A stretch of 64,000 nt of DNA from Chiloscyllium plagiosum (Eukaryota). Numbering within the stretch: the first letter of the stretch is position 1; each line of letters opens with the position of its first letter. A model generated the notes under the pieces. That model was not told the DNA's origin and did no database searches. It worked only from the letters and a program-made list of their open reading frames with translations. This document shows, one piece after another, positions 7,301-60,649 of the stretch. The stretch lies in assembly GCF_004010195.1 (NCBI RefSeq), contig NC_057719.1, positions 1,107,945 through 1,171,944 on the forward strand. The letters run 5' to 3'. The position numbers were made by a program, and so were the translations under genes.

Positions 7301-7524
7301 TCCCAGTGAGGCGGTCTCCCTGTGTGGCCGTCTCCCAGTGTGATGGTCTCCCAGTGTGGCGGTCTCCCAGTGTGATGGTCTCTCAGTGTGGTGGTCTCCC
7401 AATGTGATGGTCTCCCAGTGTAATGGTCTCCCAGTGTGATGGTCTCTCAGTGTGATGTTCTCCCAGTGTGATGGTCTCCCAGTGTGATGGTCTACCAGTG
7501 TGGGGGTCTCCCATTGTGGTGGTC
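7301..7524. repeat. 16-bp satellite array running into an assembly gap
   Basis: Same unit, adjoining the 500-N gap. Confidence 0.95.
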
Positions 7525-8675
7525 TATATCTCTCCAGACTCTTCCTATTCATATGCCCACCCAGATGCCTTTTATATCTTGCATCTGTACCAGCCTCCAC
7601 CACTTCCTCTGGCAGTCCATTCCACACACGCACCACCCTCTGTGTGAAAACGTTGCCCCTAAGGTCTCTTCTATATCTTTCCCCTCTCACCCGAAACCTC
7701 CAACACTCCAGGGAAAACAGCACCAGTCTGTTCAGCCACTCCCTATAGCTCAAATCCTCCAATCCTGGCAATATCCTTGTAAATCTTTTCTGAACCCTTT
7801 CAACTTTCACAACATCCTTCCAATAGGGAGAAGACCAGAGTTGCAGGTAATATTCCAAAAGTGGCCTAACCAATGTCCTGTACAGCTGCAACATGACCTC
7901 CTAACCCCTGTACTCAATACTCTGAACAATAAAGGAAAGCATACCAAACACCTTCTTCACTATCCTATCTACCTGCGACTCAACGTTAAAGGAGCTATGA
8001 ACCTTCACTCCAAGGTCTCTTTGTTCAGCAACACTCCCACGACCTTACCATTAAGTGTATAAGTCCTGCTAAGACTTGCAAGCCCAAAATGCAGCACCTC
8101 ACATTTATCTAAATTAAACTCCATCCGCCACTTCTCAGCCCATTGGCCCATCTGATCAAGATCCTGTTGTAATCTGAGATAACCTTCTTTGCTGTCATCT
8201 GCAAACTTACTAACTGTATCTATTATGCTCACATCCAAATCATTTATATAAATGATGAAAAGTAGTGGACCCAGCACCGATCCTTGTGGCACTCCACTGG
8301 TCACAGGCCCCCAATCTGAAAAGCAACCTCCACCACCACCCTCTGTCTTCTACCTTTGAGCCAGTTCTATATCCAAATGGCTAGTTCTCCCTGTATTCTG
8401 TGAGATCTAACATTGCTAACCAGTTCCCCATGGGGAAGCTTGCCAAATGCCTTACTGAAGTCCATATATATCACGTCCACCATTCTGCCCTCATCAATTC
8501 TCTTTGTTACTCCATTAAAAAAACTCAATTGAGTTTGTGAGACATGATTTCCCACGCACAAAGCCATGTTGACTATCCCTAATCAACCTTGCCTTTCCAA
8601 ATACATGTACATCCTGTCCCCCAGGATTCCCTCCAACAAGTCACCCACCACCGAAGTCAGCCTCATTGGTCTATA
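7525..8675 (-). mobile_element. CR1 LINE ORF2 fragment
   Basis: YMDFSKAF, TSGVPQGSVLGPLLFIIYINDLD, SKFADD, LVRPLLEY. Confidence 0.9.
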
Positions 8676-9549: not shown

Positions 9550-10392
9550 TGACATCTGCTTCCTTCTTTTTCTTAACCAAAACCTCGATTTCTTTAGTCA
9601 TCCGGCATTCCCTATACCTTCCTTTCACCCTAACAGAAATATACTGGTCTGGACTCTCATTATCTCATTTCTGAAGGCTTGCCATTTTCTAGTTGTCCCT
9701 TTACCTGTGAACATCTGCCCCCAATCAGCGTTTGAAAGTTTTTGCCTAATATCGTCAAAATTGGCCTTTCTCCAAATTTTAACTTCAACTTTTAGATCTG
9801 GTCTATCCTTTTCCATCACTATTTTAAAACTAATAGAATTATGGTCACTAGCCCCAAAGTGCTCTCCCACTGACACCTCAGTCACCTGCCCTGCCTTATT
9901 TCGCAAGAGTAGGTCAAGTTTTGCACCTTCTCTAATAGGTACATCCACATACTGAATCTGAAAATGTTCTTCTACATGCTTAACAAATTCCTCTCCATCT
10001 AAACCTGTAACACTATGGCAGTCTCAGTCTATGTTTGGAAAGTTAAAAGCCCCTACCATAACCACCCTATTATTCTTACAGCTAACTGAAATCTCCTTAC
10101 AAATTTGTTTCTCAGTTTCCCTCTGACTATTAGGGGGTCTATAACACAATCCCAATAAGGTGATCATCCCTTTCTTATTTCTTAGTTCCACCCAAATAAC
10201 TTCCCTGGATGTATTTCCTGGAATATCCTCCCTCTGTACAGCTGTAATGCTGTCCCTTACCAAAAACACCACTCCCCCTACTTCTTGCCTCCTTTTTGGT
10301 CCTCCCTGTAGCATTTGTATCCTGGAACATTAAGCTGCCTGTCCTGTCCATCCCTGAGCCATGTTTCTGTAATATCTATGATATCCCAGTCT
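9550..10392 (-). mobile_element. CR1 LINE AP-endonuclease region
   Basis: IWVELRNKKG...YRPPNS...VGAFNFPNID; REGAKLDLLL...EHFGASDHNSISF. Confidence 0.88.
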
Positions 10393-10397
10393 TGTCA

Positions 10398-12612
10398 ATG
10401 TGGCAGTCTCCCAGTGTGATGGTCTCCCAGTGTGATGGTCTCCCAATGTGATTGTCTCCCAGTGAGGCGGTCTCCCAGTGAGGCGGTCTCCCAGTGTGGC
10501 GGTCTCCCAGTGTGGCGGTCTCCCAGTGTGGCGGACTCCCAGTGAGGCGGTCTCCCAGTGACGCGGTCTCCCAGTGTGGCGGACTCCCAGTGTGGTCGGT
10601 CTCCCAGTGTGGCGGTCTCCCAGCTTGGCGGTCTCCCAGTGAGGCGGTCTCCCAGTGAGGCGGTCTCCCAGTGAGGCGGTCTCCCAGTGTGGCGGACTCC
10701 CAGTGTGGCGGACTCCCATTGTGGCGGACTCCCAGTGTGATGGTCTCCCAGTGTGATGGTCTCCCAGTGCGGCGGTCTCCCAGTGAGGCGGTCTCCCAGT
10801 GTGATGGTCTCCCAGTGTAGCGGTCTCCCAGTGAGGCGGTCTCCCAGTGTGGCGGACTCCCAGTCAGGCGGTCTCCCAGTGTGATGGTCTCCCAGTGTAG
10901 GGGTCTCCCAGTGTGATGGTTTCCCAGTGTGGTGGTCTCCCAGTGTGGCGGTCTCCCAGTGTGATGGTCTCCCAGTGAGGCGGTCTCCCAGTGTGATGGT
11001 CTCCCAGTGTGATGGTCTCCCAGTGTGGCGGTCTCCCAGTGTGAAGGTCTCCCAGTGAGGCGGTCTCTCAGTGTGGTGGTCTCCCAGTGTGATGATCTCC
11101 CAGTGAGGCGGTCTCCCAGTGAGGCGGTCTCCCAGTGTGGCGGACTCCCAGTCAGGCGGTCTCCCAGTGTAGGGGTCTCCCAGTGTGATGGACTCCCAGT
11201 GTGGCGGTCTCCCAGTGTGATGGTCTCCCAGTGAGGCGGTCTCCCAGTGTGATGGTCTCCCAGTGTAGCGGTCTCCCAGTGAGGCGGTCTCCCAGTGTGG
11301 CGGACTCCCAGTCAGGCGGTCTCCCAGTGTAGGGGTCTCCCAGTGTGATGGACTCCCAGTGTGGCGGTCTCCCAGTGTGATGGTCTCCCAGTGAGGCGGT
11401 CTCCCAGTGTGATGGTCTCCCAGTGCGGCGGTCTCCCAGTGAGGCGGTCTCCCAGTGTGATGGTCTCCCAGTGTAGCGGTCTCCCAGTGAGGCGGTCTCC
11501 CAGTGTGGCGGACTCCCAGTCAGGCGGTCACCCAGTGTGATGGTCTCCCAGTGTAGGGGTCTCCCAGTGTGATGGTTTCCCAGTGTGGTGGTCTCCCAGT
11601 GTGATGGTCTCCCAGTGAGGTGGACTCCCAGTGTGGCGGTCTCCCAGTGTGGCGGTCTCCCAGTGTGGCGGACTCCCAGTGTGGCGGTCTTCCAGTGTGG
11701 CGGTCTCCTAGTGAGGCGGTCTCCCAGTGTGGTGGACTCCCAGTGTGGCGGGCTCCCAGTGTGATGGTCTCCCAGTGTGATGGTCTCCCAGTGCGGCGGT
11801 CTCCCAGTGAGGCGGTCTCCCAGTGTGATGGTCTCCCAGTGTAGCGGTCTCCCAGTGAGGCGGTCTCCCAGTATGGCGGACTCCCAGTCAGGCCGTCTCC
11901 CAGTGTGATGGTCTCCCAGTGTGGGGGTCTCCCAGTGTGATGGTTTCCCAGTGTGATGGTCTCCCAGTGTGGCGGGCTCCCAGTGTGATGGTCTCCCAGT
12001 GAGGCGGTCTCCCAGTGTGATGGTCTCCCAGTGTGGCGTTCTCCCAGTGTGGCGGTCTCCCAGTGTGATGGTCTCCCAGTGAGGCGGTCTCCCAGTGTGA
12101 TGGTCTCCCAGTGTGGCGTTCTCCCAGTGTGGCGGTCTCCCAGTGTGATGGTCTCCCAGTGAGGCGGTCTCCCAGTGTGATGGTCTCCCAGTGTGATGGT
12201 CTCCCAGTGTGATGGTCTCCCAGTGTGATGGTCTCCCAGTGTGATGGTCTCCCAGTGTGATGGTCTCCCAGTGTGATGGTCTCCCAGTGTGATGGTCTCC
12301 CAGTGTGATGGTCTCCCAGTGTGATGGTCTCCCAGTGTGATGGTCTCCCAGTGTGATGGTCTCCCAGTGTGATGGTCTCCCAGTGTGATGGTCTCCCAGT
12401 GTGATGGTCTCCCAGTGTGGCGGTCTCCCAGTGTGATGGACTCCCAGTGTGGCGGTCTCCCAGTGTGATGGTCTCCCAGTGTGATGGTGTCCCAGTGTGG
12501 CGGCCTCCCAGTGTGATGGACTCCCAGTGTGGCGGTCTCCCAGTGTGATGGACACCCAGTGTGGTGGTCTCCCAGTGTGGCGGTCTCCCAGTGTGGCGGC
12601 CTCCAAGTGTGG
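10398..12612. repeat. 16-bp tandem satellite, consensus TCCCAGTGTGATGGTC (main array, ~138 units)
   Basis: Visible 16-bp periodicity with variants GTGTGGCG, GTGAGGCG, GTGTAGCG and GTCAGGCG. It produces the spurious 16-aa repeat ORFs (WETITLGDHHTGRPSH). Confidence 0.97.
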
Positions 12613-13059
12613 TTGTCTCCTGGTGTGGTGGTCTTGTCCAGGAGGGGTGGTCTCAGCCTGGAGTGACAGTCATGCCCAGCATGGAGGTCTTATTTGGCAG
12701 CTTCTGGGTATTCCAGCAGCTTGATGTGAAGGTGTATTACTAGCGTGATGGTCTCATTCTTGCTTTGCAGGTAATTTCTGGGTTTTCCAATGGCTCACTG
12801 TGGAGGTCTCATCTCAGCATGGTGGGACAGTCCCAACCCAGTGTGGACGTCTTGACCTGGCTCTGCATGGCAGTTTCAGCCTGGTTTTCCAGTGTACCCT
12901 GAACCTAGAACTGTTACTTGAGCTGTGATGAATTTTTACTTATGAATGATTTCTGTGATTAATTTAGGTGCTGTGGTATGGTGAATTATAAAACTTTTTG
13001 TTATCTTTTGTGAAAATACATGTAACAACAAATTATTATTCTGTTTCCTAAATGCCCTC

Positions 13060-13605: not shown

Positions 13606-13619
13606 ATACTCCTTGTATT

Positions 13620-14022
13620 TTTTTTTGGGTATTTTTTTCTTTTTTTTTAAAACCCCCACACTACCACCTAAGTGCGGTAGTGCTTATTTTTTTCCCCAGC
13701 ACCTATGGTGTGTGTGTGCAGGTGTGAGACACAGTGAAAGACACAAAGTGCACGAATCTTTATTCAATTTCCACCACCAGGAAGATAGGAAAACACCCGG
13801 GTGGCCAGTGACAAACACTGCCCTTCACATCAAAGGGCAGTGCTGTGTGATCAAAACAGTGAAGGGGAGGGTAGGGACTAAATCAAAATAGAGTTGGAGG
13901 GAGAAATGATGCACTCCACTCCCTGCGGCGCCCACCTCTCCCTGAACAACTCCAGGGTGTTGGTCGACACCGCGTGCTCCTTCTCCAAGGACACCCGGGC
14001 TCTAACGTAACCACGGAAGAGG
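13620..14022 (-). mobile_element. Tx1-clade L1 3' end, 5'-truncated, with 14-bp TSD
   Basis: LFRGYVRARVSLEKEHAVSTNTLELFRERWAPQGVECIISPSNSILI*, a 3' UTR like that of the 56-59 kb copies and an A-rich tail. TSD ATACTCCTTGTATT at 13606-13619 and 14023-14036. Confidence 0.88.
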
Positions 14023-14924
14023 ATACTCCTTGTATTGAAATAAATACACTGAAGACTATTGGTGCTGCCGTGTTCATTAACCTGTTCCTGGCTGTTCTTC
14101 CTATTGGGTAAAAACAATGAGGTAAAAACAATGACTGCAGATGCTGGAAACCAGATTCTGGAGTAGAGTGGTGCTGGAAAAGCACAGCAGTTCAGGCAGC
14201 ATCCGAGGAGCAGGAAAATCCGACGTTTTGGGCAAAAGCCCTTCATCCTATTGGCCTTGCATGACTTAATGACAATCTTCTCCTCAATTACTTCGCACAG
14301 AGTCATGGAGTCATACAGCACAGAAACAGACTTTATATGTTCCCCTCTGAGCTACTCACCATCCTGACTTGGAAATATATCACTGTTCCTTTAGTGTCAC
14401 TGGGTCAAAATCCTGGAACTCCCTCTCTCAGGGCATTGTGGGTCTACCCATAGCACATGGATTGCAGCAGTTCAAGAAGGCAGCTCACCACCACCTTCTC
14501 AAGGGGCAACTAGGGAGAGGCAATAAATGCTGGCCAAACCAGCAACTCCCAGTCACAGGAATGAATAAAAAAAGCAGCAAGTTTGCATAACTTTTATAAA
14601 AATATTAATGGAAAGAGAGAACAGGAGAAATCAGAGCTGGAATAGGCTATTCAGCCTTTCGAACCTGCTTTAACACTACATGAGATCGCCTCATGGCTGA
14701 TCTGATTTTGGCCTCAACTCTGCCTTCCTGCATGTTCCCGTAACCCTCAACTTCATAATCTCAGTCTTGAAGATATTCAATAACCTTGGCTTCAAATTCA
14801 CATCAGCTGCAGAGTACACCAGAATGTAAACACTGACTATTTGTGACATCATTGGGCTTCTGGGGAAGCCTGTAATCTGATCTCAAAGTGGTGTTTTCTC
14901 TATAGCAACAAGAAATGCTTTGCA

Positions 14925-22609: not shown

Positions 22610-23945
22610 TATACAAAAACAGAAATTGTTGGCGAAACTCTGCAGATCTGGCAACATCTGTGGGAAGAGATAATGCCTCCAGTCCAGCGTACCTCATCAT
22701 GACTGTTAGCAACTAGGAAAAAGTGGCATTTATGCTGAAGACGAAGGCGGGGGGTATATGGAAGGGTTGTTAATCATGGAGATAATGGGTAGCGTTCCAG
22801 GAGAGAAGAAAATCTGAATAAAAGATAGGAGTTAAGAATAGGATAGAACAAGTGACTGGTTGCTTTTAGCACAACGTCATTACAGAACTGGGTGTGGGGA
22901 TGGATTTTTTTAAAAAATGGAACGCTGGATTCAGGTTCTAAAGTTAATGAACTTGATGCTGAGTCCTAAAGGCTGCAGGGTCCTCAAAGTGGATTCTCAA
23001 GATCTTCTTCAAGTTTGCGCTGAGGCTCCCTGAAACACTGCAGCAGACCCTCTGACAAATGCTGGCATGGGAACACGGTGGCGTGTTGAAGTGGCAGATA
23101 CCTGGACGCTCAGGGGCATTTTTAACAGACAGAACACAGGTGTTTTGCGAAGTGGTCCCCAAATCTGCATTTTCCAGAGCAGACCACATTGTGCGCAGTG
23201 ATACAACAGACTAGATTGAGTGACATGCAGGTGAATTTGTTCTTCGCCCGGAAGGTGTGTCTGGATAGGGAGGAGATAAATGGGTAGGTGTTACACTACC
23301 TATTACATGGGATGGTGCCATGGAGGTGTGGGGACAGTCTGGAAGTGAAGGAGTGGAGCAGGGTGTCCCAGAGGGAACAGTCCTCGCAGGATGCTGACAT
23401 GGTGGGGGCTGGGGGAATCTTTTTCTCTGACACTCCTGTTTTTTTAAATTTTTTAACCCCCCACACTACCGCCTAACTGCGGTAGTGCTTACTTTTCCCT
23501 AGCACCCGTGGTGTGTGTGTGCAGGTGTGAGACACAAGGTGTGTGAATCTTTATTCAATTCCCACCACCAGGAAGATAGGAAAACACCCAAGTGGCCAGT
23601 GACAAGCAGTGCCCTTCACAAAAGGGCAATGCTGTGTGATCAAACAGTGAAGGGGAGGGCAGGGATTAAACCAAAATAGAGTTGGAGGGGGAAATAATGC
23701 ACTCCACAGGGTGGGGGAAGTGTGTCTGGTGGTGGTATCCCATTGGAGGAAGTAGAAATGACAACTGATGATCCTCTGGATGGGAAGACTGGTGGGTAGT
23801 GAGTGAGGATCAGGGGGATCAATTCTGAAGAAGGGTCACTGGACCCAAAACGTTAACTCTGCTTTCTCTCCACAATGCTGCAAGACTTGAATTTCTCCAA
23901 CACTTTCTGTTTTTGTTGCTGATTTCTAGTATCTGCAACTTTTAT
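22610..23945 (-). mobile_element. Decayed Penelope-like 3' end (GIY-YIG and terminal repeats) with nested Tx1 tail
   Basis: HCAQCGLL...CHFNTPPCSHA...QPLGLSIKFINFRT* on minus; terminal-repeat pieces at 22615-22700 and 23822-23945 (CTGAAGAAGGGTCACTGGACCCAAAACGTT). Confidence 0.7.
23418..23708 (-). mobile_element. Tx1-clade L1 3' tail
   Basis: VECIISPSNSILV* and the family 3' UTR; on the element strand the poly(A) is followed by AAACAGGAGTGTCAGAG. Confidence 0.85.
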
Positions 23946-26449: not shown

Positions 26450-26654
26450 GAAAATGTATTACTGGAAAAGCACAGCAGGTCAGGCAGCATCCAAGGAGCA
26501 GGAGAATCGACGTTTCGGGCATGAGCCCTTCTTCAGGAATGGAGAAGGGGTCCTGCCCGAANNNNNNNGATGCTGCCTGACCTGCTGAGCTTTTCCAGCA
26601 ACACATTTTCAGCTCTGATCTCCAGCATCTGCAGTCCTCACTTTCTCCTATAAG
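26450..26654. mobile_element. Penelope-terminal inverted pair with TSD
   Basis: TSD ATTACAATGG(A/G)ATCT at 26435 and 26655; intact minus-strand hammerhead core. Confidence 0.82.
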
Positions 26655-36300: not shown

Positions 36301-36345
36301 TCTAATTAATTTGCAGCACTAGTCCAACTTTCTGCTTCCTTGCAG
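36301..36345 (+). other. ZBTB1: 3' splice acceptor of the ZBTB1 coding exon (exon starts at 36346, 29 nt before the ATG)
   Basis: CTAAT branch-like motif at ~36302 and a polypyrimidine tract CTTTCTGCTTCCTTGCAG ending at 36345. Fits a non-coding first exon, as in mammalian ZBTB1. Confidence 0.75.
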
Positions 36346-36374
36346 GGACCGGGCTGACTGGCGGGTGGTCCAGG

Positions 36375-38414
36375 ATGCCAAGGCTGAGTCACAGTGAGTA
36401 CGTTCTCCAGCAGCTGAACAACCAGAGGGAGTGGGGATTCCTGTGTGACTGCTGCATCATCATTAATGACATCTACTTCCGAGCTCACCGCGCCGTGCTG
36501 ACCGCCTGCAGCTCCTACTTCCGAATGATGTTCATCAGCCAGCAGCTGACGGGGAACCTGAGCCTCAGCAACGTCAACATCAGCGCCGAGTGCTTCGACC
36601 TCATCCTGCAGATCATGTACCTGGGGAGGCTGGTCGGGGTCCCCTCGGACTTTGAGGAGCTGCGATCCGCCATGACCTTCCTGCAGCTCTACTACGTGCC
36701 CAAGAGTCTGGACGAACTGCAGCAGAGCGACGGCAAGGCCGCCCCGTCCCCCCCAGCGGCTGTGGCCCAGCCGAAAGGCGCCATGATGTTCGGGGTACGG
36801 ATGTACGAGGAGCGGCCGGGGGAGCTGGTCAAGAGGAGGCGGCGGGAACCGAGCCCCGAGGTTAACGGCCTCAGCGCTGCCCCCGCAGTTGCGCCACCGC
36901 CGCCTTCCCCCGCCGCCACCGCCACCGCCACCGCCGCCACCGCCGCCGCCACCACCACCATGGAGGCCCCGGCACGGAAGCAGGGTCGCCCGGGCCTAAA
37001 GGGCAGGCTTCACCCCCGCTTCGGCAAGTGCTACACGTGCGACTGCTGCGGCTTCGTCTTCAGCTGCGAGAAGCTGCTCAATGAGCATGCGCTGACCTGC
37101 AACAGCCGGCGCGCGCCTGCGCCCCCTGAGGGGCCGGAGCGCGAGGGCGAACCCGTTAAGGCGGGACCCAGCGGGCGGCCCGGCTCCGCGGAGCCGCCAT
37201 TGGCGCCGCCTGAGGAGAACGGCACGGGGGGCGGCCGCCCGGCGGTGAAGACGGAGCCCGACGACACGGCGGCCGTGGATCTGCACGACATCACCGTGGT
37301 GCAGGTGGCGGACGACGGCGAGCTCGCCTCGGACGACGACGTCGAGGAGAAGGCGCTGGCCTTCGAGGGGGCCGGCGGACTCCGCGGCGGCGGCGGGGGG
37401 CACCGGCCGTCGGAGGGTCACCCCAACTGGGCCGCGGAAGAGGACGAGGAGGAGGAGGACGATGATGAGGAGGAAGAGGAGGAGGAAGGGCGCACCTTGA
37501 AGCTGGAGCCGCAAGAGGGACGAGGCAGCCCGCTGGGGCCGGCCTGTGAGCTCTGCGGCGTGGCACTGCCGGAGAGTGAGCGCGCCGGCCATTATGTGGC
37601 CCACCACGTGGACAGCGTGTGCGCATGCGGCAAGTGTGGCCGCCTCCTGGTGAAGGGTGGCCGCTTGCAGGAGCACGCTGAGCGCTGCCTGGGCGGCCAC
37701 GACGCCCTGTACCCCTGGCAGGCCAGCAGCGGGCAGCCCGTACCCCCATCAACCCCGGCACCCCCGGGCGACTCGCCGCCAGGCCCTCAGCTGGCCAGGT
37801 TCACCTGCCAGGTGTGCGGGGGCAGCTTCAAACAGCGATACCAGCTACAGGAGCACATGTACCGGCACGTCGGCCGCCACTTCCAGTGCTCGCAGTGCGC
37901 CCGGGCCTTCGACCAGGAGAAGCTGTGGGTGGAGCACATTTCCCGCTGCATGTTTGGCCAGGCGCCCCGCGAAACCCCGTCCGAGAGGGTGGACCGGCGG
38001 AAGCACGTGTGTAACCTCTGCGGCAAGGCCTTTTACCAGCGGTGCCACCTGCGAGAGCACTTCACCACCCACACCAAGGAGAAGGAGTTTGCCTGCCAGA
38101 TCTGCGGCAAGGAGTTCCTGCGGGAACGCCTGCTCCGACTGCATTTGGACATGCACCGGGGAGATGCCCGTTATGTCTGCCCCAGGTGTGGCCAGGGCAG
38201 CTACCGCAAGCATGACCACCTGCGCCACATGGTGTCTCATCTGGTGGGCCGAGAGGTCATCTGTGAGGTCTGCTTCCAGGTGTTTGAGGATGGGGAGCTG
38301 CTGGAACGTCACACTGACGTCCACCTTCACACCTGCACCTTGTGTGGGGACAAGTTCAAACTGAAGAAGGAGCTCACTATGCACCATCTAACCAGCCACA
38401 CCAAGAAGCTGTGA
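36375..38414 (+). CDS. ZBTB1: Zinc finger and BTB domain-containing protein 1 (679 aa, single coding exon)
   Basis: Uninterrupted ORF. The N-terminal BTB domain (SHSEYVLQQLNNQREWGFLCDCCI...ISAECFDLILQIMYLG), the MFGVRMYE motif, CDCCGFVFSCEKLLNEH and the C-terminal C2H2 array (HVCNLCGKAFYQRCHLREH, CGKEFLRERLLRLH, RKHDHLRHM) all match vertebrate ZBTB1 as I recall it. GC/CpG-rich compared with the flanks. Confidence 0.95.
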   Translation: MPRLSHSEYVLQQLNNQREWGFLCDCCIIINDIYFRAHRAVLTACSSYFRMMFISQQLTGNLSLSNVNISAECFDLILQIMYLGRLVGVPSDFEELRSAMTFLQLYYVPKSLDELQQSDGKAAPSPPAAVAQPKGAMMFGVRMYEERPGELVKRRRREPSPEVNGLSAAPAVAPPPPSPAATATATAATAAATTTMEAPARKQGRPGLKGRLHPRFGKCYTCDCCGFVFSCEKLLNEHALTCNSRRAPAPPEGPEREGEPVKAGPSGRPGSAEPPLAPPEENGTGGGRPAVKTEPDDTAAVDLHDITVVQVADDGELASDDDVEEKALAFEGAGGLRGGGGGHRPSEGHPNWAAEEDEEEEDDDEEEEEEEGRTLKLEPQEGRGSPLGPACELCGVALPESERAGHYVAHHVDSVCACGKCGRLLVKGGRLQEHAERCLGGHDALYPWQASSGQPVPPSTPAPPGDSPPGPQLARFTCQVCGGSFKQRYQLQEHMYRHVGRHFQCSQCARAFDQEKLWVEHISRCMFGQAPRETPSERVDRRKHVCNLCGKAFYQRCHLREHFTTHTKEKEFACQICGKEFLRERLLRLHLDMHRGDARYVCPRCGQGSYRKHDHLRHMVSHLVGREVICEVCFQVFEDGELLERHTDVHLHTCTLCGDKFKLKKELTMHHLTSHTKKL

Positions 38415-43279: not shown

Positions 43280-44560
43280 TAGAAAATAGGTGCAGGAGTA
43301 GGTCATTCAGCCCTTCAAGCCTGCAGCACCATTCAACATGATCATGGCTAATCATGCAATCTCAGTATCCCATTCCCCGCTTACTCTCCATATCCCTTGA
43401 TCCCTTTAGCCGCAAGGGCAATGTCCAGCTCCCTCTTGGATATATCTGATAAAGTGGCCCCAACAGCTTCCTGTGGGAAAGGATTCCACATATTCACAAT
43501 TCTGACTGAAGAAATTCCTCCTCATCTCAGTCCTGAATGGCTTGTCCCTTATTTTTAGACTGTGACTCCTAGTTCTGGACTTCCCCAACATCAGGGAACA
43601 TTCTTCTTGCATCTAGCCTATCCAGTCCCATCAGGAATTTAGATTAGATTAGATTACCTACAGTGTAGAAACAGGCCCTTCGGCCCAACAAGTACACACC
43701 GATCCTCTTATGAGAAACCACCCTTCCTATATTTACTCCTGACTGGTCCACCTAACACTACGGGCAATTTAGCATAGCCAATTCACCTAACCTGCACATT
43801 TTAGGACTGTGGTGGGAAACCGGAAGAAACCCACGCAAGCATGGGGAGAATGTGCAAACTCTACAAAGACAGTTGCCCGAAGCAGGAATTGAACCTGGGT
43901 CCTTGGCGCTGTGAGGCAGCAGTGCTAACCACTGAGCCACCGTGCTTTAATTTACATATTTCTATGAGATTCCCCCTCATTCTTCTAAATTGCAGCATGT
44001 ACAAACCCATTTGATCCCGTATTTCCTCACATATCAGTCCTGCCATTCTGGGAATCAGTCTGGTGAACCTTTGCTGGACTTCCTCAGTGGAAGAATGTCC
44101 TTCCTCAGATTAGGAGACCAAAACTGCACACAATACTCATGATGTGGCCTCACCAAGGCCCTGCAACAAAACATCCTTACTCTGATACATGAATCCTCTC
44201 ACTATGAAGGCCAGCATGCCAATCGCTTTCCTCCCTGACTGCTATATCTGCACACCAACCTTCAAACGACCATTCCATCATGACACCCAGGTCTCATTAC
44301 ATCTCACCTTTTCCTAAACTGCCATCATTCAGATAATAATCTGCCGCCTTGTTTTTGCCACCAAAGTGGATAACTTCACATTTATTCACATTACATTGCA
44401 TTTGCTAAGCATTTGTCCACTCAGCCTATCTGTCCAAGTCACCTTGCAGCTTCTTAGCGTCCTCCTTACAGCACCCACTGACACCCAGCTGAGTGTCATC
44501 TGAAAACTTGGAGAAATGGCTTTCAATTCCTTCGTTCAAATTGTTGATGTATATTATGAA
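43280..44560 (-). mobile_element. CR1 LINE 3' half with nested HE1 SINE
   Basis: FRRMRGNLIE; SRTRSHSLKIRDKPFRTEMRRNFF. Confidence 0.82.
43641..43945 (-). mobile_element. HE1-type V-SINE (tRNA-derived)
   Basis: A box, B box GGTTCAATTCC, core GAGTTTGCACATTCTCCCC, CR1-like tail with (TCTAA)n. Confidence 0.85.
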
Positions 44561-48609: not shown

Positions 48610-49910
48610 CTTAGACAATGGGTGCAGGAGTTGGCCATTCTGCCCCTTGAGTCTGCACCACCATTCAATATGATCATGGCTGATCATCCTTAATCAGTAT
48701 CCTGTTCCTGCCTTATCTCCATAACCCTTGATTCCACTATCCTTGAGAGCTCTATCCAACTCTTTCTTAACTGAATCCAGAGACTGGGCCTCCACTGCCC
48801 TCCTGCGGCAGAGCATTCCACACAGCCACCACTCTCTGGGTGAAGAAGTTTCTCCTCCTCTGTCCTAAATGGTCTACCCCATATTTTTAAGCTGTGTCCT
48901 CTGGTTCGGCACTCACATGTTTCCAGAGTGTCCAATCCTTTAATAATCTTATGTCTCAATCAGATCCTCTCTGTCTTCTAAACTCAAGGGTATACAAGCC
49001 CAGCCGCTCCAGTCTTTCAGCGTAGGGTAGTCCTGCCATTTCACCCTGCCACCCAGCTTAGTATCATCAGCAAATTTGCTAATGTTATTACTAATACCAT
49101 CTTCTATATCATTAACATATATTGTAAAAAGCTGCGGTCCCAGCACTGATCCCTGCGGTACCCCACTGGTCACTGCCTGCCATTCCGAAATGGAGCCATT
49201 TATCATTACTCTTTGTTTCCTATCAGCCAACCAACATTCAATCCAAGTTAGTACTTTGNNNNNNNNNNNNNNNNNNNNNNNNNNNNNNNNNNNNNNNNNN
49301 NNNNNNNNNNNNNNNNNNNNNNNNNNNNNNNNNNNNNNNNNNNNNNNNNNNNNNNNNNNNNNNNNNNNNNNNNNNNNNNNNNNNNNNNNNNNNNNNNNNN
49401 NNNNNNNNNNNNNNNNNNNNNNNNNNNNNNNNNNNNNNNNNNNNNNNNNNNNNNNNNNNNNNNNNNNNNNNNNNNNNNNNNNNNNCACCAATTCCTGGCA
49501 AATATAAATTCCCTTCAGTTCAGGTCTTTCAGCCACTGTTACCTCTGGGAGATTGCTTGTGTCATCCCCAGTGAACACAGCTGAAGTATCAATTCAATTC
49601 TTCTGCCATTTCTTTGTTCCCTGTAATATATTCCCCTGTTTGTCTTCAAGGGCCCAATTTTAGTCTTAACCTTTTTTTTGCCTTTCACATGCCTTTTACT
49701 GTCCTCCTTTATATTATTGGCCTATTTACCTTCGAACCTCATCTTTTTTTTCTGCATATTTCCTTCTTAGTAATCCTCTGGTGTTCTTTAAAAGCTTCCC
49801 AGTCCTCTGTTTTCCCACTTATCTTTGCTGTGTTATACCTTTTTTCTCTTTTAACTTTGTTTCTTAACTTCCCTCGTCAGCCACGGCCACCCATGCCTCC
49901 TCCTAGGACT
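48610..49910 (-). mobile_element. CR1 LINE fragment in the putative HSP70 intron 1
   Basis: VTSGVPQGSVLGPQLFTIYVND...KFADDTKLGG. Confidence 0.88.
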
Positions 49911-51554: not shown

Positions 51555-53367
51555 AAAGAGAGTAGGGGCACACTTAAGAGAAATCAGAATGGCAAAAAGG
51601 TGATATGAGATGATCTTGGCAGATAAGGTTACGAATAATCCAAAAAGATTCTACAAGTACATTAAGGGCAACGAGAGAGAATGGGGCCCTTTTAAAGGTC
51701 AACAAAGCTGTCCTGTGTGGAACCACAGATGAGTGTGATACTAAACAAATATTTAGCCTCAGCTGTACTGTGGCAGAAGACACAGAAGTGAGTGCCAAGA
51801 AATAAATCTGATGAAAACCGTCCACATTATGGAAATGTTGGAGATTTTAAAAAGCAGAAGGGCCCTGTCAGATATTTGCATCACCCACAGACACGGGTGA
51901 GGTGCTAGAAGATTGGAAGGTGGTTAATGTTGTTTATTTAAGAAAAGTTGCAAGGAAAAGCCAGGGATCTATAGATTGGAGTCTGATATCAGTAGTGGGT
52001 AAGTTGTTGGAAAGGTTTGCATGGATTTGGAGAGGCAAAGACTGATTCGGGGCAGTCAGCATAGCTTTCTAAGTGGGGAATTGTGTCTCACTAACTTGAT
52101 TGCACTTTTGAGGATTCTCCTGATTCTCTGATAGAACATAAAACAGTGCGGCACAGTACAGGCCCTTCGACCTTCTGTTGTGCCGAAGATCAGACTAACT
52201 GACATTCCCTTCGTCTTACTATCATCCATAAGTCGCTTAAATATCTCTAATGTAGCTGACTCTACTACCATTGCTGGCAGTGCATTCCACACACCTCACT
52301 CACTATGTAAATAACCTATCTACCCCAGGTTGTCATTTATCTGAATGACTTTATAATAACTGGGAAGACCAAAAAAGACCTCTTCCATAAACATTCCTCC
52401 AATCACCTTAAAATGATGTCCCTTGTGTTAGACACTTCTGCCATGGGAAGTCTCTGGCTATCCACTCTCTAACTATGCCTCACTTCATCATAGAATCCCT
52501 ACAATGTGGAAACCGGCCACTAAGCCCAACAATTCCATACTGACTCTGAGTAACCCACCCAGACCCAATCCCCTCTTATTCTACACTTACCCCTAATGCA
52601 CCTAACTTACACAACCCTGAATACTATGGGCAATTTAGCGTGGCCAATTCACCTAACGTGCACATCTTTGGATTGTGGGAGTAGACCAGAGCAAACCCAT
52701 GCAGACATGTGGAGAATGTGCAAACTCCACACAGTCACCCGAGGCTGGAATCGAACCAGGGTCCCTGGTGCTGAGGCTGCATGGCTAATCACTGAGCCCC
52801 CATGCTGCCCTTGTATAGCTTGTACACCTTTATCAAGTCATATATCATCAGGATGCTGCCTAACCTGCTGTGCTTTTCCAGTGCCACACTTTCTTTTTGA
52901 CTTTTGAGGATGTGATCAAAATAGATGATGGCAGAGCATTAGGTGTTGTCTACGTGGACTTTAGCAAGACCTTTTGACAAGGTTCTGAGTGGTAGACTGG
53001 TTAATAAAATTAGATCACCTGGGATCTTGGGGGCCAGCCAATCAGCAAAAAATTACTTTGAAGGTAGGTGACAGGTGATGGAGAATTTTTATTTCAGACT
53101 GGAGGCCTGTGACCAGAAGTGTTCCACAGGAATCAGTGCTGGGTCTGCTTTTGCCAATTATATAAACTGTTTGGATGAGAATATAGGCAGCATAGTTTCT
53201 AAGTATGTGGAGGACACCAAAAATAGTACAGTGAAGAAGGTTATCTCCAGGTACAACAGGATTTTGATTAGCTGGGCTAATGGGCTGAGGAGTGCCAGAT
53301 GGAGTTCATTTCAGATAAATGCAAAGTGTTAGATTTTGGTAAGTAACGGTAGGACCCTGGGGAGTGT
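51555..53367 (+). mobile_element. CR1 ORF2 fragment (resumes at ~59975-60320 after the Gypsy element), with a nested minus CR1 tail and HE1 SINE (52488-52809)
   Basis: NPKRFYKYI, QHSFLSGELCLTNLI, YVDFSK. Confidence 0.75.
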
Positions 53368-53465
53368 TGTAGTTTTTGGCAGATTGCATTGACTGAGATC
53401 ATTGGCCCAGTTAACAAACCCAATCAATCAGGGAGCCCTGGGCAATTACATATAACCGGGATGTT

Positions 53466-53855
53466 AGCTGTCCTCAGCGCTGTCACCCCGGGCAGGTACC
53501 GGGGCGGGCTGCCCCAGAGGTGGTCGAAAGGTGCTGAGGGTGGTTAGTGAAGCCGGAAGGTGGGTAGGCTGTCCTGACTGCTGTCACCCTGGGCGGGTAC
53601 CGGGGCGGGCTGTCCTAGAGGTGGTCGAAAGGTGTGTCAGGGCAGACGAGCCAGAAGGCACGTAGGGGCGGGCTGAGATCCGGAAGGCTTGTGGGCTACC
53701 CTACACGCTGTCGTCCCAGGGATTCGACGTTTCGGGCGCATGCCCTTCTTCTTTGCTGCTCCTCTCCCTTGTAAAATTGCTGTCTCTTGTATGTAGCTAT
53801 AAATGTAACTGTTTGTTGTAAACTGTTTTTGTAATTTGTTTAATAAAATAAAAAA
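53466..53855 (+). mobile_element. Poly(A)-tailed, structured GC-rich retroposed insert in the 5' LTR
   Basis: 16-bp TSD ATATAACCGGGATGTT at 53450 and 53856; AATAAA plus A tail; internal 101-bp duplication. Confidence 0.85.
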
Positions 53856-53871
53856 ATATAACCGGGATGTT

Positions 53872-54095
53872 GGCACCGCAGGGAGTGGAGTGTCTTATTT
53901 CCCCTTCCAACTCTTTTTGATTTTAATCCCTGCCCTCCCCTCCCCTCCACTTTTTGATTACTCAGCATTGCCCTTTCTCAAAGGGGCACTGCTTGTCACT
54001 GGCTATTCATATGTTTCCATTCTTCCTGGTGGTGGAATATAAATATAGATTTAAACACTTGTTGTTTTCACTGTGGGGGGAACAAAAAGTAAATG
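53872..54095 (+). mobile_element. Tx1-clade L1 3' tail in the 5' LTR
   Basis: GCACCGCAGGGAGTGGAGTGTCTTATTTCCCCTTCCAACTC followed by the family 3' UTR. Confidence 0.8.
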
Positions 54096-56118
54096 GAACA
54101 TTCAGAATCTCCACTTGAAGGACTGACTCTGAGCTGGCTGGCCACACCTGGTGTACTGTGCACATGTAAATTAAGGGGACGACTTCAGTTCCAGCCTCCT
54201 ATGAGAAGCAGTTGGTACAGTTACCACAGATAGTAAAAGGCTTAGGCCCAAGCCTATTGGGGTAGAATTGGTTGAGAAAGATTCACCTAGATTAGCTCAA
54301 CACTGATTTGAAAATTGGCTGCCTCAGTGAAGTCCTCATGAAATACCCAGGGGTTTTCAGGAGGGGCTAGGAACTTTCAAAGGGGCCAAAGCCACTTGAC
54401 CTGTTAACCAAGAAGCAATTCAATTTTTTTGCAGGGCCCGCCATGTGCCATTTACCTTGCAAACAAAAGTAGAGGCAGAAATCAGGAGGCTGGAGAGCGG
54501 AAAAAAAATCATCAGTGCAATTTGCTAAATGGGCAGCACTGGTTGTACCAATTGTGAAGCCTGACAGCTCAGTTCACCTTTGAGGATTTTACAACCTTTG
54601 GCAACTGGATAAATGCAAAAGTGGTGGTGGGGGACTGCCCTTCACAAAGCTGGACATGAGACATGCCTACCTGCAATTATGAAATGTGGAGTTGCAGAAG
54701 TATGCCACAATTAATACCCACAACTGTTTGTATTAATATGAACCTGCCATTTTTGGGATATTATCAGCCTACATGCTTTTCCACAGAAATTTTGCAAGGG
54801 CTACCTCAGGTTGTCATTTATCTGAATGACTTGTTAATAACTGGGAAGACCAATAAAGAGAACTTGAAGAGTTTGGACATAATACTTAAATGTTTCACCA
54901 AGGCAGATGTATGTCTTAGAAGGGAAAAATGTGTTTCTGGTGCCCCAAGTAACCTGCTGGGTTACAGACTGGGTTAAGGGTGATCAAAGGTGCTTGGCTC
55001 CCACATCTGTACTGGAGCTTGGGGTTTTTTGGGTTAGTGAATTATTACAGGAAATTCATATGCAACCTGACTTCCATCTTGGCACCTTAACACCGGCTAT
55101 TGGAAAAAGTGTTAACTTTGGAAATGACTATGTTGCCAAGAAATAGCCTTTAGGAAAGTGTAAAAGCAACTATTGTCCTCTAAGGTGTTGGTCCACTATC
55201 CTCTGAAATGAGGCAGTGTTGACATGCAATGCTTTCCATACTGAATCTGGGTAGCATTGGCTCAGCTGTAGTCCAATGGAGAGGAATGCCCAATAGTGTA
55301 TGCTGCTTGGATTTTGGCTGGTGCTGAATGCACATACACCCAGATAGAGAAGGAAAGTTTCACTGTCAACTTTATGGAAGTTCACCCAATACATTATGGA
55401 TGTGAATTTGTCATAGTCACAGATCACAAACCCCTGCTAGGGCTACTTAAGGAAGACAAGGCAGTGCTGCCCATAGCTTCAAGTTGAAATCAGTGGTGCC
55501 TCTTATTTTCAGTGCGTGCAAGTAAGAACACTGTCTAGGAAGCCAAGTGGCTAATGCAGATGCCTTGAACTGCCTCTCTCTAGCAGATATTGCACCAACA
55601 GTGCCCCACCAGAAGAATCCATTCTGATTTAAACTTTATGGGCACCCTTCCTGTCGTCTCTAACAATATTCAACTGGCCGCAATGACATCCTGTCCTGGC
55701 AAAATTAAAACTGCTGGTGATAATGGGGAAGCAGAAGGGCCATCACAACCAGCAGTGAAACCTTTCTGGACCCAGTGAGACCAGATCACCATGAAGGATG
55801 GCATATTACTATGGGGAGCAAGTGTGATTGTCCTGAGCAAAGATCACTGCCAGATACTGACTGAACTCCATCATGGTCACCCAGAAGCTTCCAGAATGAA
55901 GATGTTGGGAAAACGTTGTCTGGTTGGATGCCAACATAGCTGCATTGGTGGGGCAGTGCCCAAAGACTGAAATTGACCCCACTGGCCTACATCCCCCAGA
56001 TTTGGTAGGGGAGGGATATAGTGATTGGAACCAGGTGGATTTCATTGACTGATCCTTGATTGGGGTTGCTCACCTGGGCCAATCAGGGAATCCTGGGCAA
56101 TGTGAATATTCTGTTTAT

Positions 56119-56389
56119 GTGGGTGGCACAGTGGTTAGCACTGCTGCCTCACAGCGCCAGAGACCCGGGTTCAATTCCAGCCTCGGGCGACTGACTGTGT
56201 GGAGTTTGCACATTCTCCCCGTGTCTGCATGGGCTTCCTCCCACAGTCTAAAGATATGCAGGTCAGGTGAATTGGCCATGCTAAATTGCCCGTAGTGTTA
56301 GGTTAGGGGTATAGGTGGGTTGCGCTTCGGCGGGTCGGTGTGGACTTGTTGGGCCGAAGGGCCTGTTTCCACACTGCTACGTAATCTAA
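56119..56389 (+). mobile_element. HE1-type V-SINE in the 3' LTR
   Basis: A box TGGCACAGTGG, B box GGGTTCAATTCC (56167-56178), V-SINE core, CR1-like tail. Confidence 0.88.
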
Positions 56390-56429
56390 AGTGAAGAGTT
56401 TGAGGTTTAAAAAAAAAAATTCTGTTTAT

Positions 56430-58140
56430 GGCCAACTGGCAGGAGCTGGAGGCCAAAGTCTCAGCTCGCCTAGGCCGCTGGACAGGACTGCTCCGAGTGC
56501 TATCTTACAGGAGGCGAGTGCTGGTCATAAACCAGCTGGTGGCCGCCATGCTGTGGTACCGGCTGGTCACTTTGGTCCCTCCTCCTGGCTTTGTCGCTGA
56601 CATCAAGAGAATGTTGGTCGATTTTCTTCTGGGACAAAAAGATGCACTGGGTCGCCGCGCAGGTTCTGAGTCTCCCTATTGAGGAGGGCGGTCAGTCGCT
56701 GGTATGCGTCCGCACCCAGGTCGTGACGTTCCGCCTTCAGACCTTACGGCGATACCTTTACGTCGAGCCTCCTCCTACGTGGTGCGCCCTGGCGACGTAT
56801 TTTTTCCGCCATGTGCGTAACCTCAACTACGACACGCAGCTCCTGTTCGTCGACCGTGACGGTTTGGAGGTCGCCTTCAAGACGCTGCCCGTCTTTTACC
56901 AGGACCTGATCACTGTCAGGAACATGGTCGAATCGCGTCGCGCCTACCCTCCGGCTGAAGTAGTGGCTGTCGTCAGGAAGCCGTTGCTCAGGAATCCGGA
57001 CCGCCCTACTCGCGGGTTCGAGTGGCTGTCGGAGGGGAGGGCCATGGCGGCGAGGGCGACCATGGTCGGGGATGTGCCGGGGGCCTGGGCTGGACGCTAC
57101 CGCAGGACATAGCGAGCAGGGCAGCGGTAGACATCCGGTACGTAGCCACCACCATCCGACGCCTTAAAACGGCGGTGCTTGGACCCGACGTAGTGCACCA
57201 GTTGGAGGACGCTCAGGTGTGCCAGTGGAGGGCTCTCTACGCGGGAGTCCTCCCCCTTTTCTCTTGGGGATCTGGGGTGGAGTGTGCTGCACACAGCAGT
57301 CCCCTGCAACCGCAGATTGCGGTGGTTCACGGACTCCCAGCCCAACTGCTTGTTCTGTGGAATCCATGGACCACATGTATATTGGGTGTGGGTGTTTGCA
57401 CTCCCTTTTTGATTTTCTGAAAAATCTCCTCCTCTGCTTTTGGTTGCACTTCTGTCGCATGCTCCTGATCTTTGGGCACCCGGTACGGAGGAAGGAGGGC
57501 AGGTCTGAAGACCTCCTCGTTGGTCTGCTTCTGGGCCTGGCCAAACTGGCCATTAACAGGTCCAGGCAATGGGCCGTGGAGGGGGTCGTTAGGGCCGACT
57601 GCCTGCCCCTCTTCCGCGGTTACGTTAGAGCCCGGGTGTCCTTGGAGACGGAGCACGCAGTGTCCACCAACACCCTGGAGTCGTTCAGGGACAGGTGGAC
57701 GCCGCAGCGAGTGGAGTGCATTATTTCCCCCTCCAACTCTATTTTGATTCAGTCCCTACCCTCCCCTTCACTGTTTTGATCACACAGCACTGCCCTTTGA
57801 TGTGAAGGACAGTGTTTGTCACTGGCCACCCGAGTGTTTTCCTATCTTCCTGGTGGTGGAAATTGAATAAAAAATTCGTGCACTTTGTGTCTTTCATTGT
57901 GTCTCACACTTGTGCACACACACACACCATGGGTGCTGGGGGAATAAATAAGCACTACTGCACTTAGGTGGTAGTGTGGGGGGAAAAAGAAAAAAAAAAC
58001 AGTAAATAGAGCACTACAGCAGTTAGGCGGTAGTGTGGGAAAAAGAATAAAGAGCACTGTAGTAAAAAAAAAGGAGTTAAAAAAAATAAATAAGCACATA
58101 GGGTTCTATTCACTCTGAGAGCTGGAGAAGAGAAAAAAAA
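56430..58140 (+). mobile_element. Tx1-clade L1, 5'-truncated copy 1
   Basis: ORF2 C-terminal half (NWQELEAKV...RVLVINQLVAAMLWYRL, C..C...H....C knuckle), frameshifted, with a ~250-bp internal deletion; 3' UTR with duplicated tail. Confidence 0.9.
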
Positions 58141-58149
58141 ATTCTGTTT

Positions 58150-59780
58150 ATGGCCAACTGGCAGGAGCTGGAGGCCAAAGACTCGGCTCACCTAGGCCAC
58201 TGGACAGGACTGCTCCGAGTGCTATCTTACAGGAGGCGAGTGCTGGTCATAAACCAGCTGGTGGCCGCCATGCTGTGGTACCGGCTGGTCACTTTGGTCC
58301 CTCCTCCTGGCTTTGTCGCTGACATCCAGAGAACGTTGGTCGATTTCTTCTGGGACAAAAAGATGCACTGGGTCGCCGCGCAGGTTCTGAGTCTCCCTAT
58401 TGAGGAGGGCGGTCAGTCGCTGGTGTGCGTCTGCACCCAGGTCGTGACGTACCGCCTTCAGACCTTGCAGCGATACCTTTATGTCGAGCCTCCTCCTACG
58501 TGGTGCGCCCTGGCGACGTATTTTTCCCGCCAGGTGCGTAATCTCAACTACGACACGCAGCTCCTGTTCGTCGACCGTGACGGTTTGGAGGTCTCCCTCA
58601 AGACGCTGCCTGTCTTTTACCAGGACCTGATCACTGTTTGGAACATGGTCAAATTGCGTCGCGCCTACCCTCCGGCTGGAGTAGCGGCTGTCGTCAGGGA
58701 GCAGTTGCTCAGGAATCCGCAACTCCATACTCGCGGGTTCAAGTGGCTGTCGGAGGGGAGGGCCGTGGCGGCGAGGGCGACCATGGTCGGGGATGTGCTG
58801 GGTGCCGGGGTCCTGGGCTGGACACTGCCGCAGGACAAAGCGAGCAGGGCTGCGGTAGACGTCCGGTACGTGGCCACCGCCATCCGACGCCTTAAAACGG
58901 TGGTGCTCGGACCCGACGTAGTACACCAGTTGGAGGACGCTCAGGTGTGCGGTGGGATCCCGTCCGCGCTCACCCCAGCCCGGACGGAATTTCACATTGG
59001 CCCCAAGGTCCCGTACTTCCCGCGGGAGCCTGTGCCCCACAACCTGAGCCGCCTCCGAAATTTTAACTTTGTTTCGTTTAGGGAGGTGAACAGGAGAGCC
59101 CTGTACAGACTGCTGCTGCACACCGTCCACCTCTTCTCCCTCACCCACCGTCCGGACACGCCTTGGCGTCCCCATTTGCCACCGGGCGGTGGGGATCCCC
59201 AGTGGAGGGCTCTCTACGCAGGAGACCTCCCCCTTTCTCTCGGGGATCTGGGGTGGAGGGTGCTGCACGCAGCAGCCCCCTGCAACCGCAGATTGCGGTG
59301 GTTCACGGACTCCCAGCCCAACTGCTGGTTCTGTGGCGCTGTGGAGTCCGTGGACCACGTGTATATTGGGTGTGGGCGTTTGCACTCCCTTTTTGATTTT
59401 CTGAAAAACCTTCTCCTCTGCTTTTGGCTGCACTTCAGTCCCACGCTCCTGATCTTTGGGCACCCGGTACGGAGGAAGGAGGGCAGGTCTGAAGACCTCC
59501 TCGTGGGCCTGCGCATTATTTCCCCCTCCAACTCTATTTTGATTTAGACCCTACCCTCCCCTTCACTGTTTTGATCACACAGCATTGCCTTTTGTGAAGG
59601 GCACTGCTTGTCACTGGCCACTCGGGTGTTTTCCTGTCTTCCTGGTGGTGGAAACTGAATAAAGATTTGTGCACCCTTGTGTCTACACCTACACACACAC
59701 ACACACCATGGGTGCTGGGGAAAAAATAAGCACTACCGCAGTTAGGCGGTAGTGTGGGGGCATTAAAAGAAAAAAAAATA
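58150..59780 (+). mobile_element. Tx1-clade L1, 5'-truncated copy 2 (465-aa open ORF2 C-terminal fragment)
   Basis: Same 5' truncation point as copy 1; CWFCGAVESVDHVYIGC zinc knuckle; in-frame ~190-bp deletion near the C-terminus; poly(A). Confidence 0.92.
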
Positions 59781-60649
59781 AACAGGAGATTTCCCCCTCC
59801 AACTCTTAAAAAAACAGGAGTGTCATTGCCCTTTGACTTAAAAAAAAATATTCTGTTTATACCTCAAACTCCTCACTTGAGGGACTGACTTCTACATGGC
59901 TGTGTACTTTGTGCATGTAAATAAAGGGTTACTTGGCAATTGGATACCAACATCATGCAGTTATATCTGTTTTTGAAACAAATTTCGGGTGCATGGCTCC
60001 TTCAAAGTGATAGGTAGACCAGCGTGGTGAAGGCATTTGTGTGTGTCTGGTTGCCTTGCTGTATGACAGCTATTAAATTGGAAAGTCTGCGAAAGTATGG
60101 CTCAGGCATTGAGGAGAGGCTGGATAGGCTGGAACTGTTTTCCCTGGAGCATAGGATGTTGAGGAGTCATCTTTTTGTAGAGGTTTATACATTTAATTAG
60201 GGGTGTAGGTAAGGTAAATAGCAAAGGTCTTTCCACTTAGGATAGTGGGGAATTCAAAACTGGAGGGCATAATTTTAAGTCAGAGAGGCAAATATTAAAA
60301 GGAATGTAAGGAAGTGTTTCAGTGTCTGAAGCTACTCCTGCTGAATATGATTCTCTACAACAAGAGCACAAAGTACATTACACCGTATTCAACTATTGAT
60401 TCTTGGTCCAACTTCCTACACAATTTTATCAGGCATCTTATGGCATGGTAACATTCCAATGATATTGCACCTTTTAACTGGTATTCTGAGCTTGAAAGTA
60501 CATGTCATAACATGATCATACTTTCTCTCTCTTCTCCCAACCCAATGCTTTCCTTGCTTCCAGAAACCGTTTATGCTAAGTTGAATACTTGATTAGCACT
60601 CAACCTCTTGGACAAAAGTTAAACCTTTTTAAATTTCCTTTCACAAAGA

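Follow-up and report, generated by a model that had tools for sequence, protein, structure and literature searches.

Why do both long terminal repeats (LTRs) of one decayed Gypsy-type retrotransposon carry poly(A)-tailed inserts at the same place? The element lies in a 64,000-nucleotide stretch of Chiloscyllium plagiosum contig NC_057719.1, the whole of which was analysed (64 kb, the window). Our answer is that a Tx1-like family of long interspersed nuclear elements (LINEs) has probably inserted here repeatedly, in one direction and at one position by the TATA-like box of both LTRs, using an endonuclease that likely reads the surrounding sequence with relaxed strictness. The family is likely to be dedicated to this Gypsy-type LTR.

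Inserts at one position in two LTRs

The LTR repeats are about 200 nt long and flank the decayed pol region at 53368-54180 and 56018-59968, with the inserts counted in. Their left halves (53368-53449 versus 56018-56104) agree in 55/75 aligned columns and their right halves in 51/65, gaps included in both cases, and for neither half did any of 2000 shuffles score as high. Identity of the pair is 73-78%, and the best-conserved part is a CCAAT-proximal stretch (20/22, a stretch picked post hoc). Both LTRs are broken 3 nt past CCTGGGCAAT (53437-46 and 56092-101), downstream of CCAAT, which agrees with the interruption in the CCAAT/TATA region that was reported for both in the preliminary description. 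All A-tailed inserts at this site are oriented in the LTR sense, and at least four of them, representing three Tx1-like subfamilies and an insert of 391 nt, share offset and direction and are flanked by target words of 10-16 nt. Under a uniform model, the chance of two insertions at homologous LTR sites is ~2e-6, a rough and post hoc figure.

The 5′ LTR reads as a target word with TATAA at its start, the 391-nt A-tailed insert, an identical target word, an old Tx1-like 3′ end, a diverged target word, and then LTR again; these are the two poly(A) inserts that had been described there. An exact 16-nt duplication, ATATAACCGGGATGTT (53450-65 and 53856-71), encloses the 391-nt insert, the youngest-looking event in this LTR, which occupies the upstream target copy with no A tail ahead of that copy. 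The insert has no Rfam family and no second copy within the window, and it may be the 3′ end of another LINE or an RNA carried in trans. It holds two GC-rich 67-nt repeats that are 90% alike, and a stretch of 28-36 nt is held in common with a repeat end at 3553, 9406, 26499, 26847, and 46354.

In the 3′ LTR, the target word (A)TTCTGTTTAT separates a short interspersed nuclear element (SINE) together with a small event X, Tx1-like copy A, and Tx1-like copy B, and its four occurrences in the window all belong to this stack. The SINE and the two Tx1-like copies had been recognized before, while event X (56390-56411) had been overlooked. The TATA segment of this LTR appears to be inverted, while the inserts retain their offset and direction, the single unusual trait of the locus. 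The reverse complement of the target word matches the 5′ LTR site at 12/17 positions (equalled by 0.14% of 39,304 random stretches) versus 8/17 for the forward word (37%). Because all four target copies carry the inverted word, the inversion would have predated the inserts. Likeness to the motif that follows some Tx1-like A tails, treated below, was scored over 13 positions against random stretches, and amounts to 8/13 (3.8%) for the reverse complement of the 3′ LTR word, 8/13 (3.8%) for the 5′ LTR target at 53450, and 7/13 (15%) for that at 54090. Event X, located between target copies, is an inverted copy agreeing with the right LTR flank at 20/22 positions, and looks like the trace of an aborted insertion in which a new oligo-T strand folded back and primed.

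The SINE at 56119-56389, which we take to be HE1-type, was considered as a Tx1-dependent (SINEU-like) partner and ruled out. It has neither an A tail nor a duplication of its own, and its sister copies sit at unrelated sites, so it offers no evidence for targeting; a complete copy terminates in AATCT repeats, and an Rfam search of the SINE gave no snRNA match. It is complete and directly abuts the first target copy on one side and event X on the other, with no duplication, a position that may reflect chance or capture.

The host of these inserts is assigned to the Gypsy type from its paired related LTRs, its polypurine tract, and the order reverse transcriptase (RT), RNase H, integrase, an order that BEL/Pao elements have as well. 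When the pol interior was translated frame by frame with stops as X, Pfam returned RT_RNaseH at E 3e-9 with a weak RT signal, the top PDB matches were RT/RNase H structures of Ty3 (E 0.001, weak), and the protein P0174, with RNase H and then integrase domains, aligned to 55022-55913 at E 4e-30. Both flanks belong to one copy of an abundant LINE, presumably CR1, whose right part restarts at 59982 collinear with the left (LINE reference positions up to 160 on the left and from 179 on the right); the Gypsy-type element is thus a single old insertion. The TG at 53368 lies within the host LINE match, which extends to 53369, the 5′ LTR start is imprecise by a few nt, the 3′ LTR begins with TA, and neither a clear CA end nor a target duplication was seen at the element's ends. 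Its gag and primer site are deleted, and the right part of the 5′ LTR runs straight into protease-like coding sequence at 54166-54180. The word at this junction is nearly identical to the AATAAA region of the 3′ LTR, which suggests that the LTR end and gag were lost through a microhomology-guided deletion.

The Tx1-like family and the motif behind its tails

The window contains five Tx1-like 3′ ends. Three of the five are at the LTR site, a share that comes from one window selected for the pattern. By shared marks (alignment A1) the copy at 13.6 kb groups with A (95%) and the copy at 23.4 kb with B (93%), while the old end at 53.9 kb stands apart (74-79%); A and B are 91-95% identical to copies elsewhere. 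Three subfamilies of different ages therefore occupy the same LTR position. The family has the poly(A) end, 5′ truncation, and 10-16-nt target duplications of the Tx1 clade. The second open reading frame (ORF2) of copy B is open over its C-terminal 454 aa. Its protein matches medaka P0173 at 31% over 458 aa (E 2e-55), and the P0173 cluster is named 'transposon TX1 149 kDa protein' by NCBI through automatic annotation. Human L1 ORF2p in PDB gave no match to it at E up to 1, and the LINE protein is nearer to Tx1-named proteins than to L1. Its nearest named relatives are whale-shark gene models (60-68% identity), and its zf-RVT match (E 8e-5, 23.7 bits) is under the curated cut-off of 27.5. An apurinic/apyrimidinic (APE) endonuclease and an RT are both present in 5/7 relatives scanned. 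Within the window, all Tx1-like copies are 5′-truncated and lack the RT core.

The two copies outside the LTRs are informative about strictness. The 13.6-kb copy has an exact 14-nt duplication (13606-19 and 14023-36) with no motif past it; the duplicated word is coding sequence of the host LINE, whose frame continues through, and the downstream flank fits the Exo_endo_phos profile at E 3e-5. This word resembles the motif at 9/13 on its 5′ side (0.8% of random stretches) and 8/13 on its 3′ side (3.8%). The resemblance of duplications to the motif that was noticed at the outset, here and at 53450, is modest. The 23.4-kb copy lies in a host that we take to be Penelope-like (Pfam gave no match in 3/3 of its frames), at a site with 4-5/13 likeness to the motif, and its own duplication encloses AAACAGGAGTGTCAGAG and another short A run. 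A motif with a second A run at so unlike a site is the expected mark of 3′ carry-over.

What, then, is the motif? AAACAGGAG occurs in the window only three times, each time after an A tail (59780, 59812, and 23441 on the minus strand), as first reported, and AAACAGGAGTGTC is entirely absent from two of the five tails (13.6 kb and 53.9 kb). The tails of A (57983-58141) and B (59761-59850) are strings of element pieces of 11-37 nt, A runs, and motif fragments. That of A holds AAACAG at 57997, short 3′-end copies at 58008 and 58051, AAGGAGT at 58071, and a 31-nt foreign piece (58100-58130), and that of B holds AAACAGGAG at 59780, AAACAGGAGTGTC at 59812, and two element pieces of 11-18 nt (59789 and 59825). 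For comparison, contigs of three related organisms were collected in four runs, with likeness set at 80% and 155-197 contigs per run. The element end at 59760 is a plain A run in all four runs, averaging the loose contig ends beyond the tail likewise gives A runs (agreement 0.58-0.64), and none of the contigs listed spans the whole stretch. Loose ends before 59593 average to a TATA-like word in run X6 (40 contigs) and to a vaguer A/T-rich word in X15, with an A run for X1; they were too mixed and were left unused. Of the 12 joint rows with letters in between, four switch from one of copies A and B to the other, and the remaining eight run from the tail side back into the element. A spacer of AGGAG type is present in five of these eight, which come from runs X15 and X6 of organisms A and C. 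One of the five matches the window's own junction of GGAGTGT with the 3′ untranslated region (59819-30), which indicates that the 11-18-nt scraps in B's tail begin at start points of tandem neighbours elsewhere.

In contigs of two related organisms, AAACAGGAGTGTC thus shows up as a spacer between tandem copies. An LTR without inserts likely reads TATAAACAGGAGTGTC at the site, in which case the motif would itself be LTR sequence. Wider scans added nothing. A metagenome scan for the 3′-end motif and a viral scan for AAACAGGAGTGTCAGAG gave no matches; scans for the LTR word CAATCAGGGAGCCCTGG returned 86 stretches (one viral, 85 from metagenomes), all attributable to chance and none similar to the window; none of 160 candidates in prokaryote genomes was confirmed; the antisense frame of the 3′ end, used to find flanks through spurious gene calls, yielded 0/4 candidates; and Rfam gave three weak matches only, all far under family thresholds.

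Copies A and B begin at one identical base of the element (56430 and 58152). They differ in 62/1097 columns (5.7%), their 3′ ends belong to different subfamilies, and their tails differ. A carries B's letter at 6/23 places where B departs from most contigs, and the two are closer over the first 300 columns (9/300 versus 53/797 differences, p 0.02, post hoc). We infer two insertions, one of which has the other's 5′ part through a template switch or a later exchange. Microhomology was tried as the source of the common 5′ end and rejected, because three contigs that extend upstream start fitting at 58151-58153, leaving at most 1 nt.

Proposed mechanism and rival explanations

The mechanism that we propose combines a sequence-reading APE nuclease with target-primed reverse transcription. 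The endonuclease would nick 3 nt past CCTGGGCAAT, and the nicked strand would prime reverse transcription on the poly(A) tail. Because the duplication restores the site, later inserts would pile up, with the target copy retaining the upstream half of the LTR as their most likely entry point. Copies residing in LTRs may be read through at their weak end, by which new copies would come to carry AAACAGGAG(TGTC) and short neighbouring pieces, as in the 23.4-kb copy and the tails of A and B. Look-alike words elsewhere would also be cut (13.6 kb), and some inserts would land off target altogether (23.4 kb). In the 3′ LTR, the TATA segment would have been inverted first, with the upstream half-site and an A/T-rich nick sufficing there, and copy A would probably have gained its 5′ end from the adjoining copy B, either while inserting or through an exchange afterwards. 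Nicking by the Tx1L endonuclease is described as nearly confined to its own target and as weaker once the upstream half is replaced (PMC1950540), which fits both landing at the upstream-half target copy and use of the inverted site. The carried motif could aid insertion by analogy with R1Bm, which is reported to require downstream target sequence on its RNA (PMC7265360).

Several observations weigh against this mechanism. As written, the 3′ LTR target word reaches only 5/13 against the motif, a score that 71% of random stretches equal. Two of the five Tx1-like copies lie outside LTRs, in other repeats, one of them at a wholly unlike site. The endonuclease itself is absent from the window. The common 5′ end of A and B means that they are not fully independent events. 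The equation of the motif with LTR sequence draws on a modest likeness of 7-8/13 in the 5′ LTR copies, the joint rows were a selection of 12 from 800, and in three of the five spacer rows the motif was deduced from alignment reach. Finally, the foreign piece at 58100-58130 is a weak match to the LTR right halves (3.7% and 16% of random stretches are as good). Targeting is not strict. Of the site preference and 3′ carriage originally put forward, what stands is a pattern seen in three subfamilies, two LTRs, the 23.4-kb motif, and the tandem spacers; strict targeting falls with the two copies off site, and the parasitic use of the LTR promoter proposed alongside would be conjecture.

A generic hot spot would dispense with a specific nuclease, as the A/T-rich TATA region suits any L1-type enzyme and an array could grow by A-tail re-use and unequal exchange. 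The shared start of A and B at 5.7% divergence, a 3′ LTR target unlike the motif in the insert direction, the unrelated insert and SINE at the same place, and the copies elsewhere all agree with this account. It nevertheless seems unlikely to us, as two LTRs 2.6 kb apart were first struck at equal offset, the 391-nt insert took a target copy with no preceding A tail, and the motif found repeatedly behind tails, in this window as well as in other organisms, is G-rich beyond mere A/T content. Host proteins on the CCAAT/TATA promoter might instead bring the element in by tethering, the motif merely being located there. Offset and direction were retained despite the inverted TATA segment, the CCAAT-proximal stretch is the part best conserved between the LTRs, and the Dictyostelium non-LTR element TRE5-A, described as targeting through TFIIIC/TFIIIB at a set distance from the promoter complex, offers a precedent (PMC3159450). 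However, the 13.6-kb insertion has its motif-like duplication in a LINE coding region without such a promoter, binding of the TATA-binding protein should change at an inverted TATA, and the specificity of Tx1L is reported to reside in its endonuclease (PMC1950540), and we regard tethering as doubtful. It is likewise a long shot that the LINE homes to an RNA polymerase II promoter of another retroelement through upstream CCAAT-side context or bound proteins, not through the TATA-side word, living on read-through transcripts of that promoter and dragging other RNAs into the site.

If AAACAGGAGTGTC were the element's own 3′ terminus, as the preliminary description allowed, its presence after the tail in two of five copies and as fragments in a third would follow directly. 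It is located past the A run, however, and the tails that lack it, taken with the contig spacers between tandem copies, indicate that it is not the element's own end; with loose contig ends at the final base of the element reading as A runs in 4/4 runs, that idea is refuted as far as these data go and we consider it very improbable. A single insertion into a parent LTR, copied into both LTRs on Gypsy replication, would place the inserts identically, yet the copy in the 5′ LTR is only 74-79% identical to A and B and has another 5′ end and another target word. Such differences of subfamily, 5′ end, and target word between the two LTRs rule out descent of the inserts from a single parent LTR. A and B are also far younger, from their identity to copies elsewhere, than the LTR pair, and the data contradict copying for the 391-nt insert as well as for A and B, leaving it hardly any probability. 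Repeated insertion by a sequence-reading nuclease remains the account that we prefer.

Features of the window, related systems, and significance

Table 1. Positions and strands of the Tx1-like copies, the Gypsy-type element, and the other inserts in the window
Feature	Position	Strand	Remarks
Tx1-like 3′ end, subfamily 1	13606..14036	-	inside the endonuclease-coding start of another LINE
Tx1-like 3′ end, subfamily 2	23407..23719	-	unrelated C-rich site; 11-nt duplication 10/11 (23709-19, 23407-17)
5′ LTR, left part	53368..53449	+	CCAAT 53420; homology to 56018-56104
Target copy T1	53450..53465	+	TATAA 53451; identical copy T2 53856-53871
391-nt A-tailed insert	53466..53855	+	AATAAA 53842; perfect 16-nt duplication; upstream of old Tx1 end
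Old 5′-truncated Tx1-like 3′ end, third subfamily	53872..54089	+	74-79% identical to four younger ends
5′ LTR, right part	54090..54180	+	with diverged target copy T3 (54090-54102); LTR end and gag missing
Decayed Gypsy-type pol	54181..56003	+	RT, RNase H, integrase start; numerous stops and frameshifts
Polypurine tract	56004..56016	+	adjoins 3′ LTR start
3′ LTR, left part	56018..56104	+	CCAAT 56079; CCTGGGCAAT 56092-101
Target copy M1, apparently inverted TATA segment	56105..56118	+	more copies ending 56429, 58151, 59860
SINE	56119..56389	+	78-80% identity with copies at 43649-43941 and 52620-52801
Event X	56390..56419	+	22-nt inverted copy of LTR right flank (59856-77), then A run
Tx1-like copy A, subfamily 1 3′ end	56430..58141	+	internal deletion of ~250 nt
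Tx1-like copy B, subfamily 2 3′ end	58152..59846	+	deletion of ~190 nt at 59512/13
3′ LTR, right part	59861..59968	+	AATAAA 59920; end imprecise at base level

Elsewhere in the window, an open frame of 702 codons (36306-38414, plus strand) encodes BTB and C2H2 zinc-finger domains and is an unremarkable ZBTB-type exon of the host. Long arrays of 16-nt units occupy 7233-7644 and ~10277-12690, one of which breaks a LINE copy. Runs of N at 5488-5692, 6801-7300, 26562-26568, and 49259-49485 all fall outside the features described.

Tx1 families that prefer LTR retrotransposons have already been described in crocodilians, where Tx1-8_Crp and Tx1-4_AMi prefer specific LTR retrotransposon groups (Kojima 2015, PMC4494074). 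The main text of that paper does not name the LTR element or the position. The host here is shark-like, the closest named proteins being those of whale shark. The same source calls a family target-specific when >20% of its genomic flanks are of one sequence kind (PMC4494074). A closer likeness in behaviour is found in Tx1-Mar and SINEU-3, which are reported to use a fixed site and direction in Mariner-N4_AMi with a ~16-nt duplication, and to form tandem inserts around a duplication that are interpreted as sequential insertion (PMC4494074). The fixed site, the direction, the duplication of ~16 nt, and the tandem inserts sandwiching it all recur here. Two unlike target sequences within one group are a further likeness, as are passengers described as mobilised in trans (PMC4494074). 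The Tx1-Mar target, unlike ours, is a DNA transposon; the SINE in the shark LTR is no partner of this kind, while the 391-nt insert may be.

Tx1L of Xenopus laevis, which resides in Tx1D (PMC4494074), is of the same clade type and pairs a sequence-specific APE endonuclease with one site in another transposon. It is described as stringent, whereas the family here has two of five copies off site and has used an inverted target. TRE5-A differs in serving RNA polymerase III genes through protein tethering, which for the shark family is a model only. A literature search, with subscription journals and Repbase outside its coverage, found no report of a shark Tx1 family targeting a Gypsy LTR.

The locus adds a shark-type case, with a defined position by the TATA-like box of an LTR, to the few LINEs that take other transposons as targets. 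A preference other than that of L1 in a natural APE endonuclease is relevant to the evolution of targeting and to site-directed gene insertion. The 3′ LTR amounts to a natural target mutant, its downstream half apparently inverted and the offset and direction kept, and provides a substrate for asking which half matters. For the retrotransposon that hosts them, inserts at this site are expected to disable the LTR promoters.

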